Positions 79 to 34,425 of a DNA stretch of 34,492 bases are shown in pieces. The notes below the pieces were generated by a model that saw nothing but the letters and a program-made list of their open reading frames with translations, was not told the origin of the DNA and searched no databases. Source of the stretch: an uncultured archaeon (GTDB taxonomy: Archaea; Aenigmatarchaeota; Aenigmatarchaeia; GW2011-AR5); contig CAYJRV010000001.1 of assembly GCA_964372695.1 (NCBI GenBank), positions 1 through 34,492 of the forward strand, written 5' to 3'. Each line of letters opens with the position of its first letter. Position 1 is the first letter of the stretch. Made by a program: the position numbers and the translations under genes.

Positions 79-2577
79 TTACTTCCTTTTCCTTGCTTCG
101 GCTTCCTTCTTCAGCCGCTCATAGCGCTCCTTCATTTCCGCTGTTTCCAGATCCGTGTCCAGCCACGAGTAGATCTTTCTTATCGACTCCCTTGCATACC
201 TCTTGATGCGGCCGTCCCTGTGGCCTTTGGTCATTTCTTCCAGCACAGGAATTGCCCTCTCGTCGCCAAGGTCACCAAGAGCAGCAACAGAGTAAAGCTG
301 TACAAGGATGGATTTCTCTTTGGTGCACTCCGTCAGGAAGTCCAGTACGTCTTTTCTCCCTTTCCCGGTCAGGCCAAGGTTTCTTATCGCGCTTAATCTC
401 GATTGTTCCTCATGGCCGTATTTTGCATGCTCCTTCAAGAGGTGTATCGATTCGTCCGTCTGCAGTTGGGCGATGCCGGCCAGCACGCCGGATTTTATCA
501 CGTCATTCCAGGATTGCACAGAAATATTTCTCTTGAGCAGCTGCATTGCTGCGTCCTGCCCTGTCTTGCCGGCGCTTTTCGCAGCTTCTGCAGGCACATA
601 GTAGCTGTTTTTGTCCTGCATGAGCCTTTTCAGCGTCTCAAGGGCTTTATCCGTCTTGAATTCCCCGAGCGCTGTGGCAACGGCGCGCCTCGCCTTCGGG
701 TTTCTTACGTCGGCCATTTTAATTAAAGCCTTCAGCGCATTCTCAGTCTTTATTGTCGCCAGCGACGATGCTATCTCTGCTTGGACGCCCCAGAACTTTT
801 CGCGTTCAAACCGCTTTGCAAGGGCGTTTACAGCCTCTGAATTCCCGAGCTTCGCAATTTCCTGCGCCGCAAATATCCTACCCAGGGGGTTTTCATCATT
901 CTCAAGCTGGTGGAGCCACATGGACTTGGGTTTGCTGAAGTCCATTTTTTTCAGCAGAAAGTTCTCGGGATCTATCCTCACGTCAAACGGCGGCGAGTTC
1001 AATTTGTACCTTAACTGTTTCTGTTTTTCTTCAATGGTCTCAAAAAATTTCCTTGTGCCTTCCCTCGTTGTTATTTCTATTGTTATGGGCAGTGAGAAGA
1101 GCGGCGTCTGCTCGTCTGTTTTTTGCGTCTGCGCAATGCGGATTACCGCTTCCCTGTTTTTGTCATCCCAGTAATAGGCTGCCTTGAGCTCGGGGTGGCC
1201 GGCGCCGTAGACCCATTGGTCGAAGAATTTCTTTATGCTCCTGCCGGACGCCTCTTCTATGGCCAGTATGAGGTCTTCGGTTTCCACTGTCCTGTTCTTG
1301 TGCTTTTCCACGTAGTGGTTGATGCATCTCCACCACACCTGCTCTCCGAGAATATTCCTGAGCATGTTCAGTACCAAAGAGCCCTTCTGGTACAGGTGCC
1401 GGTCAAAAATATCATTCGGCTCAAAAAATATGTTCGTGACTATGGGCCTCCTGTACCTGTCCCTGTCTTCCGCAAAATAGACCCTCGCATTGTCGTAAAG
1501 CTCGTAGAGAAATTCATCCCTGCCTTTGTCATGCTCCGCAAAAAGAGCGTCAAAGTATGTTGCGAAGCTCTCGTTGAGCCATACATGCGCCCAGTCCCTG
1601 CATGTCAGCAGGTCGCCAAACCACTGGTGCGCTAATTCATGCGCCACAAGGCTGTCATGGAATGCCTCCTCATGCGCGCGCTCATCGTGCAGTGCAAGGT
1701 CAGTTTGTGTAGTTGCGGTTGTGTGTTCCATCCCGGCAAAGAAGAAATCTGCGACAGCCACTTGCGCATATTTTTCATAAGGGTACCTCACGCCCGTCTT
1801 TTTCGAGAACAGTTCCATGATGCGCGGCGTCTTGCCGAATGCCCGTCTTGCATCAGCTTCCCTTCCTTTCTCGCAGTAGTACGTTATTGGTATTCCGTCC
1901 CACTCGTCCTTTATTTCAGAGAACTTCCCTATTGCAAACATGAGCAGGTAGGAGGCAACCGGCTGCCTCATCTTCCAGTGGTATGTTTTCTTCCCGCCCT
2001 TTTTGTCCTCCAGTACGTTGATGAGGATGCCGTTTGAAAGGGCAAAAAATTCCTGCGGCACTGTTATGACTGTCTCGGCCATGAATTTTTCATGTGGCGC
2101 GTCGTGGCATGGGTACCAGTAGCGCGCTTCCTCGGCCTCGCTGTGCGTCCATATATGAACCGGTTTCTTCGGGTAGTGTTTGTCGGGCTCTATGAAGAAA
2201 ACACCAAGCTGCGGGTTGGTGATTTTGTAGTCTATGCTTATTTCCATGGACTCTCCGGCAGAAGCCTTTGTTCTCAGGTAAAGTGTGATTTTCTCGCCGT
2301 CGTAGTCATGCTTCAAAATTTTGCCTTCCCGGTCTTTTACAGAGACGATTTTCATGCCGACTGCGTCGAAAACAAGCCTGTCGGCGTCCATGAACATTTT
2401 TGCCGATATCACGGCCCTGCCGAACACAATCTTCTTCTGCATGTCAAACGAGAGCTCAAGCCTTATGTGTTCTGTCCTAAAATCCCTGTGCGGCGGGTAT
2501 TGTGGCGCTGATCCGGGGAGGGCGAACCTTGGATCGGGAAGAGCGTCAAACAAAAATTTGTTGTAAATCCTGCACAT
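79..2577 (-). CDS. M1-family zinc aminopeptidase (aminopeptidase N / tricorn-interacting-factor-like) with C-terminal HEAT-like repeats
   Basis: Exopeptidase motif FAGMEHT. Zinc motif HELAH followed 18 residues later by E (WLNESFATY). C-terminal Ala/Leu-rich repeats ending ...LGDLGDERAIPVLEE. The track start at 2604 is TTG, so the first ATG (MCRIYNKF) at 2577 is used. Confidence 0.85.
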   Translation of the reverse strand: MCRIYNKFLFDALPDPRFALPGSAPQYPPHRDFRTEHIRLELSFDMQKKIVFGRAVISAKMFMDADRLVFDAVGMKIVSVKDREGKILKHDYDGEKITLYLRTKASAGESMEISIDYKITNPQLGVFFIEPDKHYPKKPVHIWTHSEAEEARYWYPCHDAPHEKFMAETVITVPQEFFALSNGILINVLEDKKGGKKTYHWKMRQPVASYLLMFAIGKFSEIKDEWDGIPITYYCEKGREADARRAFGKTPRIMELFSKKTGVRYPYEKYAQVAVADFFFAGMEHTTATTQTDLALHDERAHEEAFHDSLVAHELAHQWFGDLLTCRDWAHVWLNESFATYFDALFAEHDKGRDEFLYELYDNARVYFAEDRDRYRRPIVTNIFFEPNDIFDRHLYQKGSLVLNMLRNILGEQVWWRCINHYVEKHKNRTVETEDLILAIEEASGRSIKKFFDQWVYGAGHPELKAAYYWDDKNREAVIRIAQTQKTDEQTPLFSLPITIEITTREGTRKFFETIEEKQKQLRYKLNSPPFDVRIDPENFLLKKMDFSKPKSMWLHQLENDENPLGRIFAAQEIAKLGNSEAVNALAKRFEREKFWGVQAEIASSLATIKTENALKALIKMADVRNPKARRAVATALGEFKTDKALETLKRLMQDKNSYYVPAEAAKSAGKTGQDAAMQLLKRNISVQSWNDVIKSGVLAGIAQLQTDESIHLLKEHAKYGHEEQSRLSAIRNLGLTGKGRKDVLDFLTECTKEKSILVQLYSVAALGDLGDERAIPVLEEMTKGHRDGRIKRYARESIRKIYSWLDTDLETAEMKERYERLKKEAEARKRK

Positions 2578-2812: not shown

Positions 2813-4189
2813 ATGAAGCCGTCTGATGTAGCGCATATTTTCCGTTCCTATGATGTGCGCGGCGTTGTGGGCAGGGACCTGGGGGACGAGATTATGGAAA
2901 GGATAGGCCTTGCCTTCGGCAATTACGTGAAAAAGGATATTGTTATAGCGCATGATGTCCGGATTCCAAGCCCTTTCCTGAAGGACGCTTTTATCGAGGG
3001 GTTCTTGAAATCGGGCCATTCAGCGGAGGACTGCGGCTTTCTGAGCCTGGGTGCCGGAATGTTCCGCGCGTGGCAGGCCGGAAAGGAGTTCGCGTTCGTC
3101 ACGGCATCGCACCTTCCGGCAGAGTGGAACGGCGTGAAGTTTTTCCACAGCAACGGCGCGGGTTTCATGGAAAAGGAGAATTATGAAATCAGGGACGCTT
3201 TTCTTTCGGGCTCTTCAGAAGGCCATTTCGCTGGGGCATATGAGTCTTACCCAAATGCCGCCGTGCTCGCGGAATATATAAAATTCCTTAATTCTAAAAT
3301 CAAGCTCAGGAAAAAATTGGATGTGGTGCTTGACTGCGGGAATGGCTGCGCCTGCATTCTCGCGCCGCAGCTCTTCAGGGCCGCCGGCTGCAGCGTTAGG
3401 GCGATATTTGACAAAGTGGATGGCACGTTTCCCAATCGCCTGCCGGACCCGATAGAGAAAGAGCTCTCTGTGCTGAAATCAGAGATGCCAGGCAGCGACC
3501 TTGGAATAGCCTACGACGGCGATGCCGACAGGACGGCGCTTGTGGACGACAAGGGCAGGTTCATGATGCCTGAGGAAACGTCTTTCATTATTTTGCTCGA
3601 ACTTCTAAAAAAAGAAAAAGGCCCGGTAGTGGCAAATGTCGAGTGCACAAGAATTATAGATTCAATAGCGGCAAAATTCAAGAGGCAGGTTATTCGTGTC
3701 CCTGTCGGTCACACCTTCCTGATGGAAGCCGTGAATAAGCACAGTGCCTCTTTCGGAGTCGAGTCGGCAGGCCATTATGCTATGCCGTCAATAATCCCGT
3801 TCGACGACTCAATGGTCGTCGGGCTTTACGTTGCGCACGTTCTGGCCCAGCGGGAGGAAAAGCTCTCGGAGCTGCGCAAAGAGGTACCGGAGATGCATTT
3901 CGAGCGCCTCAGCTACGAATGCCCCGACAAAGCCAAGTTCGAGATAATGAAAGGTCTCATGCAAAGGCTGTCAAAAGATTTTCCCAATGTAAACAAAATG
4001 GACGGCGTCCGCGTAGATCTTGAAAACGGCTGGTGTCTGATCCGCGTTTCCAACACATCTCCCTACATCCGCCTGACTGTGGAAGGGAACACAGAGCAGG
4101 ACAAAAAAGAGTTGCAGAAGCAGTTCTTGGATTACCTGAGAGCGGAAATGAGAAGATTCAATTTGGAGCTCGTCCCGGAGCACAAATAA
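2813..4189 (+). CDS. Phosphohexomutase (phosphomannomutase / phosphoglucomutase / GlmM family)
   Basis: Active-site serine loop TASHLPAEWNGVKF. Metal-binding loop GIAYDGDADR. The sugar-binding and phosphate-binding regions are of typical length (458 aa total). Confidence 0.9.
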   Translation: MKPSDVAHIFRSYDVRGVVGRDLGDEIMERIGLAFGNYVKKDIVIAHDVRIPSPFLKDAFIEGFLKSGHSAEDCGFLSLGAGMFRAWQAGKEFAFVTASHLPAEWNGVKFFHSNGAGFMEKENYEIRDAFLSGSSEGHFAGAYESYPNAAVLAEYIKFLNSKIKLRKKLDVVLDCGNGCACILAPQLFRAAGCSVRAIFDKVDGTFPNRLPDPIEKELSVLKSEMPGSDLGIAYDGDADRTALVDDKGRFMMPEETSFIILLELLKKEKGPVVANVECTRIIDSIAAKFKRQVIRVPVGHTFLMEAVNKHSASFGVESAGHYAMPSIIPFDDSMVVGLYVAHVLAQREEKLSELRKEVPEMHFERLSYECPDKAKFEIMKGLMQRLSKDFPNVNKMDGVRVDLENGWCLIRVSNTSPYIRLTVEGNTEQDKKELQKQFLDYLRAEMRRFNLELVPEHK

Positions 4190-5740: not shown

Positions 5741-6124
5741 TTAACCAGGCAACTCTGTGCGCTCTATGGAGTCGGCCTGTATCTCCAGCTCGGACCTGTA
5801 AAGGGCTGCCTTGCCTTTCACTATCACATTGTCGCCTTTCCTGAGGTCGTATACGCCTTTTTGCGTTCTGGCCGTGCGCTCAAACATGACAATTTTGGCC
5901 TTTCCTGTCCCGTCGGCTAGGGTGATAAATACGTGGCCATCATCGTTCGTCGAGTAAGACGCTATGGTTCCTGATATTTCTACCACCCTGCCGAGCGTTT
6001 CTTCTGTCATGTTGGCAGCAGCCAATTTTTCAGGTTTGGCAGACTGGCCAAAGGCCGCAATGCCTATAATCCCGATAACGGCAATCACAAGGGATATTTT
6101 TCTTATCTGCTCGTCTGTTATCAT
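5741..6124 (-). CDS. Membrane-anchored OB-fold (tRNA_anti-like nucleic-acid-binding fold) protein
   Basis: N-terminal TM helix ISLVIAVIGIIGIAAF. An OB-fold pattern follows: VVEISGTIAS...GHVFITLADGTGKAKIVMF...GDNVIVKGKAALYRSELEIQ. The start overlaps the upstream gene by ATGA. Confidence 0.7.
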   Translation of the reverse strand: MITDEQIRKISLVIAVIGIIGIAAFGQSAKPEKLAAANMTEETLGRVVEISGTIASYSTNDDGHVFITLADGTGKAKIVMFERTARTQKGVYDLRKGDNVIVKGKAALYRSELEIQADSIERTELPG

Positions 6125-6651
6125 GTCAGATCAAAAACCTCCAGGTCCTCATGGAGCGGCCCGTGCTTCGTGAGCGTGGATTTCTTCAGCCTGATTTTGT
6201 CAGCGAGAAAGCTGCCAAATTCTTCATCATGGTGCCTGCCGGCGAAAGCCTGCAGCTGCTTGTTGTAAATCTGCGATCTTACCCTGGCCAGCGTAAGATG
6301 CGGGACAGGCTTCTCCTTTGGGAGCATGTCAGCAAGCAACTCATTTACAGCTATATGCAGGTTGAGGAATTGCTCTGACTCAGCGCCTGCCCAGACAACG
6401 CGGATGAAGCTGCTGCTTGGGAAGAAGCCGATACTCTTCAGAAGGACGGTAAACTGGCCGGTCTTAATGTTTCCAACTCTCTTCACGACAGACTTCGTTT
6501 TTTCTTCATCCAGTTCACCTAGGAACTTCAGCGTGAAGTGCAGGTTTTCCTTTTCAACGGGCTTGGCATCGAGCCCGGTGAGTTCCTGCTGCAGTTTTGA
6601 CATTCTGTTCTTAATGTCCTCAGGGACGTCAACAGCCAGGAAACAGCGCAT
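6121..6651 (-). CDS. thpR: RNA 2',3'-cyclic phosphodiesterase (2H phosphoesterase, LigT/ThpR family)
   Basis: Two HxT motifs at canonical spacing (HFTLKFLG and HLTLARV). Length is 176 aa. Confidence 0.85.
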   Translation of the reverse strand: MRCFLAVDVPEDIKNRMSKLQQELTGLDAKPVEKENLHFTLKFLGELDEEKTKSVVKRVGNIKTGQFTVLLKSIGFFPSSSFIRVVWAGAESEQFLNLHIAVNELLADMLPKEKPVPHLTLARVRSQIYNKQLQAFAGRHHDEEFGSFLADKIRLKKSTLTKHGPLHEDLEVFDLT

Positions 6652-6804
6652 TCCGATCAGATATAGTAATTATCAGGAATCTTTATTAAGTGTGTGAGTT
6701 TAATTCCGTAAAATGCCATATCTATCAAAATTCCCCGTTTTTAAGCCAGCTGTGCAGCAAAAAGCTTTTAGTATACACGTGTTCAAAAAATAAAGGTGTG
6801 AGCT

Positions 6805-18199: not shown

Positions 18200-18286
18200 A
18201 GCCCCGTAGTCTAGAGTTAAACGGAGTATGGTCAAGGATAGCTGCCTCTGGAGCAGCGGACCCAGGTTCGAATCCTGGCGGGGCTA
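18200..18286 (+). tRNA. tRNA-Gln (anticodon CUG) with a 12-14 nt insertion in the D-loop
   Basis: Acceptor AGCCCCG/CGGGGCT with discriminator A, then U8 A9. D stem GTCT/GGAT. Anticodon arm GCTGC-CTCTGGA-GCAGC. T arm CCAGG-TTCGAAT-CCTGG. The D-loop is 23 nt where 7-11 is expected. A TATA-like GGTTATAAAACC lies ~30 nt upstream. No CCA is encoded. Confidence 0.8.
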
Positions 18287-30834: not shown

Positions 30835-33672
30835 CTATTCCAATAATATCCCGAACTTCTGCGGCGTGGCCTGCCTGGCCTTTGTATCCTGGCTTTTTTC
30901 TGCATCAGCTATCTCGACCTTAGCCCGGAACTCCTTTTCAAGGAATTCTCTTGCTTCTTCCAGGAGCTGCAGCTGTTTTGACCTGGGCAGCACAGGCTTA
31001 AGCTCGTTCAGCCTTTTGTAGAGCGACTGTATGTAAGCCACAGTCGCCTGCCCGTAGCTGCCCGAGCTCATTATTTCCCTTGTTATTTCATTTATTCCCT
31101 TGTCCTTGTTCTTCAGCACCTCTTGATAGACGCGGAACTTCCAGCCCTCGGCCACAAATATCTTCACCTTTTTCGGTTGCCGTATCTTTGACAGTTTTTG
31201 TATCTCTTCCACGTCTGTAATAGTCTGCTTGAGCATGCTTTCTCCTGCTTGAACATATCCAAAGGTTTTCATCTCGTCATACTTGGGCCAAGTAGAGAGA
31301 AATACCGACTTTCTATTTCCAAGCTGAGACCATAGCTCTTCTCCTAGATGCGGAGTCAGCGGTGCCACCATCTTGACTACTTTTTCCAGAACATCTGTAA
31401 GAACTTTTTTGTTCGCATTTTTCATTCCGCCTGCACGCCGCAGATACCACTTCAAATCATTGGTCGGTTCAAATAAGGCGTGCTGCACTGCTGAGCGGAA
31501 TTTCAGGATTTCATAAAACCCTGTTGAACTCATGGCGTTTTCATTCATCTTGCTTTGTAGGTAGGCATCAGCATTCCTGATTTTGCCGGATTTTGCTTTT
31601 TTCAGGTTCTTCACGAGCTCTGCAATGAATTCCAGCCGGTTTCTGTAGCCCTTTATGTTTTCTGCTCTCCAGTCAGCATCTTCCAGCCCTTCTGAAGAGC
31701 ATGCAATGTTTATGCGGACGAGGTCCGCGCCAAACTGTTTTACCAGGTCAATGAGCGGAATTATGTTCCCTTTGGATTTGCTCATCTTTTCCCCCTCCAC
31801 ATTCACGAAGCCGTTTACGCTTATGGCCTTTGGCCATTTATTTTCCGGCCAGATGGCCGCATGGTGGTACATATAGAATATGAGGTGGTGCTGTATCAGG
31901 TCCTTGCCGCTGTTTCTCATGTCCATCGGGTAGAAATGTTCGAACTCCGCCCTCATCATGAGAAGAATTTTTTTGTTTATTTTGGATACCTTGCTTATTT
32001 TGGTGGCATCTCCTTTGCCCAGAAAAATATAATCGAATACTTCACAGGTAAATTTTTCTGGTGGTATCCTGTATTTGGTAATTATGTGTGCAATCGTGTA
32101 GTAAGCCATATAGATTGTTGAGTCGCTCAGCGTCTCCACCATCCAGCCACTGTCCCACGGTAGCGGCGTCCCCAGGCCGCTTCTCCTTGCGCATGCCTTG
32201 TCCTTGAGCCAGTCTATTGTATTCTCGAAGTTGTTTCTCGCATCTTCCGGATAGATATCCATGCGTCTCAGATGCCGCCTTACTTTATTCTTCCACTCTT
32301 CGTCTGAATATTTCAGGAACCATTGGTTCTCTAGGATCTTCACATGGCACCTCGTCGTGCAGCGGCATACTACCCTGGCAGTTGGCTCCCACATGCTTGC
32401 TGCTATGCCCTTCTCGCTGAAATCTTTGTTGATGGTATCTTTAGCCCGGTTCACGGCCATGCCGGCGTAAGGCCCGCACCTCTCATTAAGCACACCTTGA
32501 TGGAATTCTTTCTTGTAAATTATGTTAGTTGCTTCGTCCAGTTCTTTTTCCTGTTTTGTTGATGTAATTTTCATCTTTTCAGTTATTTCTATTGCCGGAT
32601 GCTCTCCGAGCCTTGGAGTCTTAACAAGGGCGATAGGCTCCACATCCTGCTTCTGAAGGCCATATTGCTCCAGATCGTTGTTGTCTATCATTTCCTTTAG
32701 CGCTATCCAGTCATATGGAGCATGGCTCGGAACGCTCATTACAACGCCTGTTGCGTTCTGGGGGTCCACAAACCTAGAGGGAAGTATTGGTATTTCCCTG
32801 TTTCCAACAGGCTCGGTGCATTTTGCCCCGATAATTTTTCCTATGTCAAAAACTTTTTCCAGTGGCGTATATTGTATCTGGTCTTTCAGTTTTTCAGCTG
32901 CATATTTGCTTACTATCCATTTTTCTGTGTTAATTTTGAGTATGACATATTCAGCATCCGGGTTAACCCACATATTTGTTACGCCGTATATTGTTTCAGG
33001 TCTGAGAGTCGCAGCCGGCAGAATGTAATCATCGACCTTGAATTTGAGGACTAAATACTCCTGGGGACTTTCGCCTTCACCCTCCAGCCTGTCATGGTCA
33101 CCGGTCGGGCTCTGGTCCTTCGGGCACCATATCACCGGGTGAGTTCCCCGGACTACATAACCTTTTTTCTTCAACAGGTTGTACTGCCACTCGACAAATC
33201 TCGAAAATTGGGGCGTTATGGAAAGAATGAACTTTCTTCTCCAGTCTATGGAAAATCCTGCCGCTTTGAATGTCTCTTCCGTTTTCTTTGCCCAGAATTC
33301 AGCAACAAACTTTGGCCCTTTTTCCTTGAATTTCCGGATGTCCCTGTCAGTGGCGCCGTATAGCTTGAATGTGGATATCTGGCTCTTGTCGCCCTTTTTG
33401 AGGCGCTCTACAACGCCCACTATAGGCTCGCCGGTGGCGTGGAATCCCTGGGCAAGCAGCACATTGTAGCCCTGCAGCCGCTTGAATCTGGCGTAAGCAT
33501 CCGTACGTGTGTATGTGTATGAATGGCCTATATGCGCATTGCCATTTACATAGGGGATTACCATCGAAGTGAAGAACTTCTTCCTCTTTTTGTCCATGTT
33601 CGTCTCATGCAGCTTTTGCCTTTCCCAACGCGCCTGCCATTTCTTCTCGATTTTATTGAAGTCCATAATCAC
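30835..33672 (-). CDS. leuS: Leucine--tRNA ligase (archaeal type)
   Basis: HIGH motif (NGNAHIGHSYTY), KMSKS motif (GEKMSKSKGN), a CP1 editing insertion, and 945 aa. Confidence 0.95.
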   Translation of the reverse strand: MIMDFNKIEKKWQARWERQKLHETNMDKKRKKFFTSMVIPYVNGNAHIGHSYTYTRTDAYARFKRLQGYNVLLAQGFHATGEPIVGVVERLKKGDKSQISTFKLYGATDRDIRKFKEKGPKFVAEFWAKKTEETFKAAGFSIDWRRKFILSITPQFSRFVEWQYNLLKKKGYVVRGTHPVIWCPKDQSPTGDHDRLEGEGESPQEYLVLKFKVDDYILPAATLRPETIYGVTNMWVNPDAEYVILKINTEKWIVSKYAAEKLKDQIQYTPLEKVFDIGKIIGAKCTEPVGNREIPILPSRFVDPQNATGVVMSVPSHAPYDWIALKEMIDNNDLEQYGLQKQDVEPIALVKTPRLGEHPAIEITEKMKITSTKQEKELDEATNIIYKKEFHQGVLNERCGPYAGMAVNRAKDTINKDFSEKGIAASMWEPTARVVCRCTTRCHVKILENQWFLKYSDEEWKNKVRRHLRRMDIYPEDARNNFENTIDWLKDKACARRSGLGTPLPWDSGWMVETLSDSTIYMAYYTIAHIITKYRIPPEKFTCEVFDYIFLGKGDATKISKVSKINKKILLMMRAEFEHFYPMDMRNSGKDLIQHHLIFYMYHHAAIWPENKWPKAISVNGFVNVEGEKMSKSKGNIIPLIDLVKQFGADLVRINIACSSEGLEDADWRAENIKGYRNRLEFIAELVKNLKKAKSGKIRNADAYLQSKMNENAMSSTGFYEILKFRSAVQHALFEPTNDLKWYLRRAGGMKNANKKVLTDVLEKVVKMVAPLTPHLGEELWSQLGNRKSVFLSTWPKYDEMKTFGYVQAGESMLKQTITDVEEIQKLSKIRQPKKVKIFVAEGWKFRVYQEVLKNKDKGINEITREIMSSGSYGQATVAYIQSLYKRLNELKPVLPRSKQLQLLEEAREFLEKEFRAKVEIADAEKSQDTKARQATPQKFGILLE

Positions 33673-33733
33673 CAGCCAGCAAAAATAACGTGTATTTTAA
33701 GATTTATAAGACCAACATAAATAGTAGAGCCGC

Positions 33734-33822
33734 GGGCGTGTAGCTCAGCTTGGATAGAGCACTTACCATAAGGTGCAAGCCTTCTAAGCAAGGGGTCGCG
33801 GGTCCGAATCCCGTCACGCCCA
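33734..33822 (+). tRNA. tRNA-Arg (anticodon UCU) with a 14-nt intron at non-canonical position 29/30
   Basis: Acceptor GGGCGTG/CACGCCC with discriminator A. D arm GCTC-AGCTTGGATA-GAGC. T arm GCGGG-TCCGAAT-CCCGT. Removing ACCATAAGGTGCAA (33765-33778) yields a perfect anticodon arm CTTGC-CTTCTAA-GCAAG. A TATA-like ATTTATAAG lies ~30 nt upstream. Confidence 0.8.
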
Positions 33823-33825
33823 TAT

Positions 33826-34425
33826 ATGTCAAGTTCGATATGGGGCGAAGGCGACAGGTTAACGCTAAATTTACTGAGAAAAAAAGCGCTCAATGGCAAG
33901 TGGCTTGATTTGGCTGCCGGAGAGGGCCGTTATGTTAGTGAGATTCTGAAAAAGGCAGATCATCTTGTAGTAAGCGATATAGATAAAAAAGAACTGGATA
34001 AAATTCAAAAACTGGTTCCAAAAGAAGCAAAGTCTAAGGTTAAATCAGTGCCTTTTGACTTAACAAAGAAATTTCCTTTCAAAGAAAAATATTTTGATGG
34101 GGTCTTTTGTACTGGAACTCTACACATGTTTTCTCAAGGTGTTTTGTATCATATATTCGGGGAAATTTATAGGGTGTTGAAGCCAAAAGGCACAGTTATT
34201 TTGGATTTTGCAACAAGTGTGAAAAGAACAGAAAGAAACAAAAAAATGATAGACGAAAAATGTTATAAGCATGGGATTGCCAAGCGGCTTTTGATAGATT
34301 TGACAAGGCAGTACAGAATTAAGATGTACGGATCTACGTTCGAGGACGGTTTGACCGAAATCCCTGGGTATGGGTGGATAACAAGAGGCAGGTTTATACT
34401 GCTAGTTGGTCGCAAGCGAAACTAA
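33826..34425 (+). CDS. Class I SAM-dependent methyltransferase
   Basis: Motif I WLDLAAGEGRY, post-I VVSDID, and motif II/III-like DGVFCTGTLHMF and LKPKGTVILDF. The ATG lies 4 nt after the tRNA-Arg 3' end. Confidence 0.8.
   Translation: MSSSIWGEGDRLTLNLLRKKALNGKWLDLAAGEGRYVSEILKKADHLVVSDIDKKELDKIQKLVPKEAKSKVKSVPFDLTKKFPFKEKYFDGVFCTGTLHMFSQGVLYHIFGEIYRVLKPKGTVILDFATSVKRTERNKKMIDEKCYKHGIAKRLLIDLTRQYRIKMYGSTFEDGLTEIPGYGWITRGRFILLVGRKRN

Follow-up and report, generated by a model that had tools for sequence, protein, structure and literature searches.

The window analysed here, a whole stretch of 34,492 nt of archaeal DNA, contains at 33734-33822 on the plus strand an interrupted tRNA gene, which we interpret from sequence comparisons, with a probability of about 0.88, as a tRNA-Arg(UCU) gene that is functional in its Aenigmarchaeota-like DPANN host, has a TATA-type promoter of its own and harbors a 14-nt protein-spliced intron of the EndA type at tRNA position 29/30. 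The identity of the tRNA, the intron and its position had been proposed in a first-pass annotation of this DNA, and are corroborated by orthologs with an empty site, by introns at the same site in relatives, and by covariation of the base pairs that span the insertion. With this intron a further clear-cut case is added to the known archaeal phenomenon of bulge-helix-bulge (BHB) introns; the mechanism is not new.

Gene structure and splice register

The precursor gene is 89 nt long, without an encoded CCA, and is detected by both ARAGORN and the Rfam tRNA model (RF00005), the latter matching it end to end (33734-33822, plus strand) with 45.2 bits against a gathering score of 29. Its acceptor stem (33734-33740 paired with 33815-33821), D stem (33743-33746 paired with 33757-33760) and T arm (33798-33814) are canonical, in agreement with the earlier reading of the sequence; the discriminator is A73 (33822), and the arms other than the anticodon arm are all perfect. 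The anticodon region consists of CTT (33762-33764), ACCATAAGGTGCAA (33765-33778) and GCCTTCTAAGCAAG (33779-33792), and spans 25 nt versus the 11 nt expected by the Rfam model, a surplus of exactly 14 nt.

Excision of the 14-nt intron ACCAUAAGGUGCAA (33765-33778, plus strand) yields the perfect anticodon arm CUUGC-CUUCUAA-GCAAG and a 75-nt tRNA-Arg(UCU), which ARAGORN recognizes as tRNA-Arg(tct). In this product A26 comes from 33761, C27, U28 and U29 from 33762-33764, G30 and C31 from 33779-33780, the anticodon loop CUUCUAA from 33781-33787 and the 3' stem strand GCAAG from 33788-33792, while the anticodon TCT is read directly at 33783-33785. The 5' exon (tRNA positions 1-29; 33734-33764, plus strand) and the 3' exon (positions 30-73; 33779-33822, plus strand) are delimited by the only excision that restores CUUGC/GCAAG, and also by comparison with orthologs, in which the 5' half of the gene is identical or nearly so. 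In a brute-force trial of single excisions, only removal of 33765-33778 gave five Watson-Crick stem pairs together with U33 and a 75-nt product; a second, independent enumeration, which took all excisions in the BHB register and filtered them for a valid Arg(UCU) cloverleaf, returned the same interval as its single solution. The excision put forward in the first-pass annotation is thus the only one that emerges from either procedure.

The register in question is defined by a simple rule, by which two strands of four bases pair with each other, one ending two positions short of the 5' cut and the other two positions short of the 3' cut. At the window intron these are GCAC (33759-33762) and GUGC (33773-33776), and all four pairs are Watson-Crick. 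When the exons and splice sites were held constant and the intron alone was shuffled, a 4/4 helix in register was reached in 0.18% of 200,000 trials (P=0.0018). The rule was not tuned to the window case, since it is followed by introns of relatives at other sites: the canonical 37/38 introns of the orthologous loci L104, L106, L102 and L006, where CUUC pairs with GAAG or GAGG and the cuts are UA/N and NN/A (the slash marking the cut), the 40/41 intron of L103, and the 53/54 intron of L105. The splice points, deduced earlier from the mature fold, therefore lie in the same register as the canonical 37/38 introns of this lineage.

A TATA-like box TTTATAA (33703-33709, plus strand) is read directly at a distance of about 28 nt (from its centre) upstream of the tRNA, and motifs of the form AAGATTTAAAT or resembling TTTATAA are found at the matching distance upstream of the tRNA in L083, L089 and L103; by sequence, the box is a likely archaeal promoter. 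At the other end of the gene, an open reading frame for a SAM-methyltransferase (33826-34425) starts 4 nt past the 3' end of the tRNA (33823-33828, CCA-TAT-ATG), and the junction between tRNA and reading frame is equally tight in L081 (about 2821-2823) and L102. This tight spacing in three loci suggests a tRNA-mRNA co-transcript, from which RNase Z, in cutting at the tRNA 3' end, would release a SAM-methyltransferase mRNA with almost no leader. A further peculiarity is found in the T loop UCCGAAU (33803-33809), where position 55 (33804) is C. U55, the site of pseudouridine 55, is near-universal in tRNA T loops. Among the orthologs, C55 recurs in L089, L103 and L104, with UUCGAAU or UUCAAAU in other relatives, and it is limited to tRNA-Arg(UCU): the tRNA-Gln of the window has the normal UUCGAAU.

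The window is archaeal in content, encoding RadA, FtsZ, AlaRS, LeuRS, ribosomal proteins L1, L10 and L11, and Spt5. LeuRS shares 59-65% identity with proteins named Candidatus Aenigmarchaeota/Aenigmatarchaeota and as much as 75% with metagenomic proteins, and its best match among species-representative genomes reaches only 57%; on the evidence of these protein similarities the source is a sparsely sampled, Aenigmarchaeota-like DPANN lineage. Neither an EndA nor an RtcB gene was found within the 34-kb window, whose only RNA-end-processing gene encodes a LigT-like 2H phosphoesterase of the 2'-5' RNA ligase family (PF02834, E=4e-24; 6121-6651, minus strand).

Shape of the bulge-helix-bulge motif

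The central helix is formed by a 5' strand from the exon, GCAC (33759-33762, tRNA G24, C25, A26 and C27), and a 3' strand from the intron, GUGC (33773-33776); it was noted in the first-pass annotation and is retained with all four pairs in the minimum-energy fold. The two 3-nt bulges that had been described on either side of it fared differently. The 3' splice-site triplet AA/G (33777-33779; A77, A78, G79) is indeed an open bulge, whereas in the 5' triplet UU/A (33763-33765), which the BHB model treats as a bulge, the two U residues pair with G72 and A71 in the minimum-energy fold. There U63.G72 and U64-A71 extend the central helix to a 6-bp hairpin, with the 5' cut at the helix-loop junction and only the 3' bulge open. 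L089 and L105 fold with both splice-site bulges open.

The flanking helices had been given as 1-2 bp. This holds for the inner element of the window intron, a single pair C66-G72 closing the 5-nt loop CAUAA (33766-33772), but not for the outer helix, which has 0 contiguous bp. The motif is accordingly not of the strict hBHBh' form, in which the 3-4-3 core is flanked on either side by a helix (h and h') of 2 bp or more. The strict hBHBh' motif is the substrate of alpha4 and alpha'2 enzymes. With an outer helix of 0 bp and an inner helix of 1 bp, the window intron is better described, as modelled, by the relaxed class (HBh'/BHL), and specifically as a BHL-like motif. The earlier wording "minimal or relaxed" is apt, given the BHL-like 5' site in the window and the absence of an outer helix in all six 29/30 introns of this gene.

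The 5' strand of the central helix takes up G24 and C25, which belong to the 3' strand of the D stem and make up half of that stem. The same two bases being used in both structures, formation of the mature D stem excludes the splicing-competent conformer, and vice versa. It was also observed that the D loop GCUUGGA (33748-33754) pairs over 7 bp with UCUAAGC (33783-33789) of the anticodon loop and stem in the minimum-energy folds of several precursors. As a folding model, this helix might act as a distal outer helix of the BHB; its bases are invariant, so it carries no covariation signal.

The following course of events would account for these features. An 89-nt precursor would be transcribed from its own TATA-type promoter, and G24-C27 of the exon would pair with GUGC of the intron in the 4-bp helix of a minimal relaxed BHB, or of a bulge-helix-loop. 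The archaeal splicing endonuclease would then cleave on the 3' side of U29 (33764) and of the final intron A (33778), an RtcB-type ligase would join the exons, and once ligation is complete the D stem would form, together with the anticodon stem CUUGC/GCAAG. Cleavage, ligation and the type of enzyme are predicted here.

Orthologs, rival readings and intron history

The tRNA-Arg gene lies 62 nt from the divergently transcribed LeuRS gene (30835-33672, minus strand), and this arrangement is conserved in relatives, where orthologs were collected via LeuRS and via a scan for the tRNA 3' half. Nine loci (L091-96 and L099-101) have an empty site, their uninterrupted GAGCACTTGCCTTCTAAGCAAGGGG being the exact predicted spliced product; the predicted spliced junction itself joins ...GCACUU to GCCUUCUAA.... 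The 29/30 site is occupied in five further lineages, by AGTTTAACGTGCAA of 14 nt in L105 (GCA_053536315.1), ATCAGCAAATGCTGAGTGTAG of 21 nt in L111-114 (GCA_013331845.1), ACCTGATGCGTAATTTAGGGTGCAA of 25 nt in L089 (GCA_936421775.1), ATCCAATTAGACGCTCTATTTGGAGTGGAG of 30 nt in L107-109 (GCA_018304605.1), and TGTTTTGTTGTTAGATATAACAAAACGTGTAA of 32 nt in L106 (Logan assembly ERR15087788).

The central helix is in register in all of these introns, with 4/4 pairs in five of the six (the window counted) and 3/4 in L107. The inner helix measures 1, 2, 5, 5, 5 and 10 bp across the six, the values of 5-10 bp belonging to the longer introns; the outer helix is 0 bp throughout, and the 3' splice triplet is AA/G or AG/G in every case. 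Among the four carriers that were aligned, the pairs spanning the insert (27-43, 28-42 and 29-41) all have substitutions in both partners, with pairing preserved at 100%. The central helix is likewise 100% paired in the four, C-to-U changes giving G.U pairs, and the first pair of the inner helix alternates between C-G and G-C (the latter in L105 and L106), a compensatory change.

A metagenome scan for 29/30-interrupted copies with an exact exon-flank pattern gave no matches, and one with the tRNA 3'-half pattern recovered the empty-site loci and no new 29/30 carriers. L002 and L115 have no tRNA upstream of LeuRS, and L083 and L110 are incomplete, contig ends falling inside the tRNA. Breaks of relatives' contigs within the tRNA-Arg gene (L083, 1-50; L110, 1-94; also L084 and L085), with contigs ending in ...GGATAGA or ...GAGCAT, may reflect strain-level variation of the intron region. 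Several loci also have mobile-element-like open reading frames near the tRNA-LeuRS locus (L105, 620-1390; L086-L088, about 6203-6724; L111/L113/L114, 4017-4502), comprising a LAGLIDADG_3-like frame adjoining the tRNA, a Y1 transposase and a reverse-transcriptase fragment.

These comparisons bear directly on the other ways in which the locus can be read. By default ARAGORN reports tRNA-Leu(aag) for 33734-33822, that is, a class II tRNA-Leu(AAG) in which the hairpin at 33759-33776 is the anticodon arm and a CCUU...AAGG hairpin the long variable arm, and the discriminator A73 fits this assignment. The program's own drawing, however, contains A.A and C.C mismatches in the 5-bp anticodon stem, and with introns allowed it calls the same interval Arg(tct) and not Leu. 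Moreover, the supposed anticodon arm is absent from orthologs or measures 21-32 nt there, while the supposed variable arm is the CUUCUAA anticodon arm, invariant in all orthologs. To our knowledge, tRNAs with A34 are not normally used by Archaea. The orthologs rule out tRNA-Leu(AAG), an artefact of the ARAGORN default to which we assign practically no chance of being right. A real intron lying 3 nt further 3' (33768-33781), with the anticodon stem CUUAC/GCAAG, corresponds to the i(35,14) reported by ARAGORN -i; in a manual reading CUUA (33762-33765) pairs with CAAG (33776-33779) at three of four positions, and the 3' end GCAAG of such an intron repeats the 3' strand of the stem. It would nevertheless create an A30.C40 mismatch where every ortholog, interrupted or not, has G30, and its central helix has 3/4 pairs and not 4/4. 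The GCAAG repeat is, in addition, missing from L105, L107 and L111, all of which have the 29/30 site. We reject this placement on the invariance of G30 and consider it very improbable.

A decaying pseudogene, in which the 14 nt are an unspliced insertion (for instance a footprint or a product of slippage) and a separate intact tRNA-Arg(UCU) serves the cell, is also improbable, if less so than the shifted intron. The unusual C55 could be taken in its favor, although L089, L103 and L104 share it, and so could the weak BHB with its absent outer helix, the C6.A67 mismatch in the acceptor stem of L089 and L105, and the restriction of the view to a 34-kb window. Against decay, lineages with LeuRS proteins of only 60-67% identity have preserved the site of the insert, the in-register helix and the promoter-like box, compensatory changes in the stems are a signature of selection on a functional RNA, and the remaining arms are perfect. 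The Arg(UCU) gene also keeps its syntenic slot in the relatives examined, L002 and L115 having no tRNA upstream of LeuRS. The functional tRNA-Arg(UCU) gene with a 14-nt intron at 29/30 is therefore the reading that we retain.

Orthologous tRNA-Arg genes are interrupted at other positions as well: on the D-arm side at about 19/20 (L098) and about 22/23 (L081, L087, L102), at 37/38 (L104, L106, L102, L006, L001), at 40/41 (L103), at 53/54 (L105), and in the T loop (L111). In L081, L087 and L102 the automatic 4/4 solutions for the D-arm intron are regarded as false, G18-G19 being deleted in them, and manual placement at about 22/23 gives a 3/4 helix. The tRNA-Arg(UCU) of L001 (about 3850-4045, minus strand) is interrupted three times (D loop, 37/38 and T loop) and was missed both by Rfam at the gathering threshold and by ARAGORN. 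In the close relative L103 (about 227-332, minus strand; LeuRS 73-74% identical), a 31-nt intron is located at 40/41, opposite 29/30 across the anticodon stem; its hBHBh' motif is complete, with an outer helix of 4 bp and an inner helix of 8 bp, and at pair 29-41 the U-A has become A-U. The suggestion of the first-pass annotation that non-canonical introns are widespread in this genome is thus supported at the level of the lineage, where orthologs of one gene have introns at seven positions.

In a neighbor-joining tree of LeuRS, a crude one that serves only to show the dispersal of carriers, those with the 29/30 intron occupy separate branches interleaved with non-carriers. Such dispersal suggests either an old intron that was repeatedly lost or recurrent gain at one site. 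The 14-nt form was probably shortened from an older, longer 29/30 intron, introns of 21-32 nt being still present in relatives.

The other tRNA gene of the window that was said to have an insertion of about 14 nt outside 37/38, tRNA-Gln(CUG) (18200-18286, plus strand), does contain an insert, but with a weaker motif than had been implied. Rfam scores it at 24.2 bits, below the threshold, because its D arm is interrupted and is missing from the match. ARAGORN makes no call on the unspliced gene and reports Gln(ctg) once the proposed 14-nt intron at position 15/16 of the D loop (18215-18228, AGTTAAACGGAGTA) is removed, an excision that leaves the classic D loop AGUGGUCAA. The layout of this intron, 1+7+4+2, is the same as in tRNA-Arg, and by manual reading its central helix of GUCU and GGAG is 3/4 paired; the strict 4/4 register solutions all destroy the D arm and were discarded.

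Relation to known tRNA introns

Protein-spliced tRNA introns at non-canonical sites have been well documented in Archaea, and the positions listed for them include 29/30 (PMC4090602), in accordance with its designation as a non-canonical site in the first-pass annotation. Relaxed HBh', hBH and BHL motifs are cut by (alpha-beta)2, epsilon2, or specific-loop enzymes; DPANN archaea, in whose lineages many tRNA genes are disrupted, have alpha4, (alpha-beta)2 or epsilon2 EndAs with L3 or L2 loops, the crenarchaeal L1 loop being absent (PMC5829648). In ARMAN-2 (Ca. Micrarchaeum), a 13-nt relaxed-motif intron at 59/60 of pre-tRNA-Cys is cut in vitro by the epsilon2 EndA (PMC3239211). Position 29/30, introns of 13-14 nt, and relaxed motifs in DPANN are all, then, already published. 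A literature search found no paper on the tRNA introns of Aenigmarchaeota, and the present case adds a DPANN lineage outside the published tRNA-intron and EndA surveys that we found.

A splicing endonuclease of broad specificity in this lineage, also suggested at first pass, is a reasonable proposal in the light of the literature. A stronger version may be formulated, which we regard as speculative and rather unlikely as a whole: the tRNA-Arg(UCU) of this clade has introns at no fewer than seven positions, its 29/30 intron occurs on several branches and was twice whittled down to 14 nt with an inner helix of 1-2 bp and no outer helix, and, provided that splicing of such minimal forms is efficient, the endonuclease must accept a bare 3-4-3 core formed by unfolding half of the D stem. 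Were this true, either the range of EndA would be broader than that of any characterized enzyme or the body of the mature tRNA would help, as in the eukaryotic ruler mechanism, and the lengths of 14, 14, 21, 25, 30 and 32 nt would constitute a natural substrate panel for the limit of EndA.

There is also a practical side, in that standard tRNA finders mis-called tRNA-Arg as Leu(AAG) and missed both tRNA-Gln and the three-intron ortholog of L001. Metagenome-assembled genomes of Aenigmarchaeota consequently seem short of tRNAs unless non-canonical introns are modelled. One syntenic gene with empty sites, a length series at the same site and alternative intron positions is an unusually clear natural experiment, and the tRNA-Arg series can inform studies of the gain, loss and shortening of introns and of the minimal EndA substrate.

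In Caldivirga maquilingensis, tRNA-Ala is split at position 29/30. The introns described here resemble those of Crenarchaeota, and of Thermoproteales in particular, in being of the protein-spliced type, in occupying sites outside 37/38 including 29/30, in their relaxed HBh'/hBH motifs, in the presence of several introns per gene, and in the rapid turnover of positions among relatives. In contrast to those systems, the host belongs to DPANN and not to TACK, none of the six 29/30 examples has an outer helix, and the EndA is expected to differ, having the L3 or L2 loops of DPANN and no L1 (PMC5829648). Pre-tRNA-Cys of ARMAN-2 is similar in its DPANN host, its very short intron (13 nt, as against 14 nt in the window), its relaxed hBH/BHL motif and its non-canonical site, yet the intron lies in the T loop there and in the anticodon stem here, the lineages are different, and it is in the present gene that D-stem bases build the central helix. 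Finally, the canonical hBHBh' motif at 37/38 has the same 3-4-3 core, cut two bases after the helix on each strand, whereas at position 29/30 the flanking helices are absent or 1 bp and the helix is made of D-stem bases and those of positions 26-27 instead of bases of the anticodon loop.
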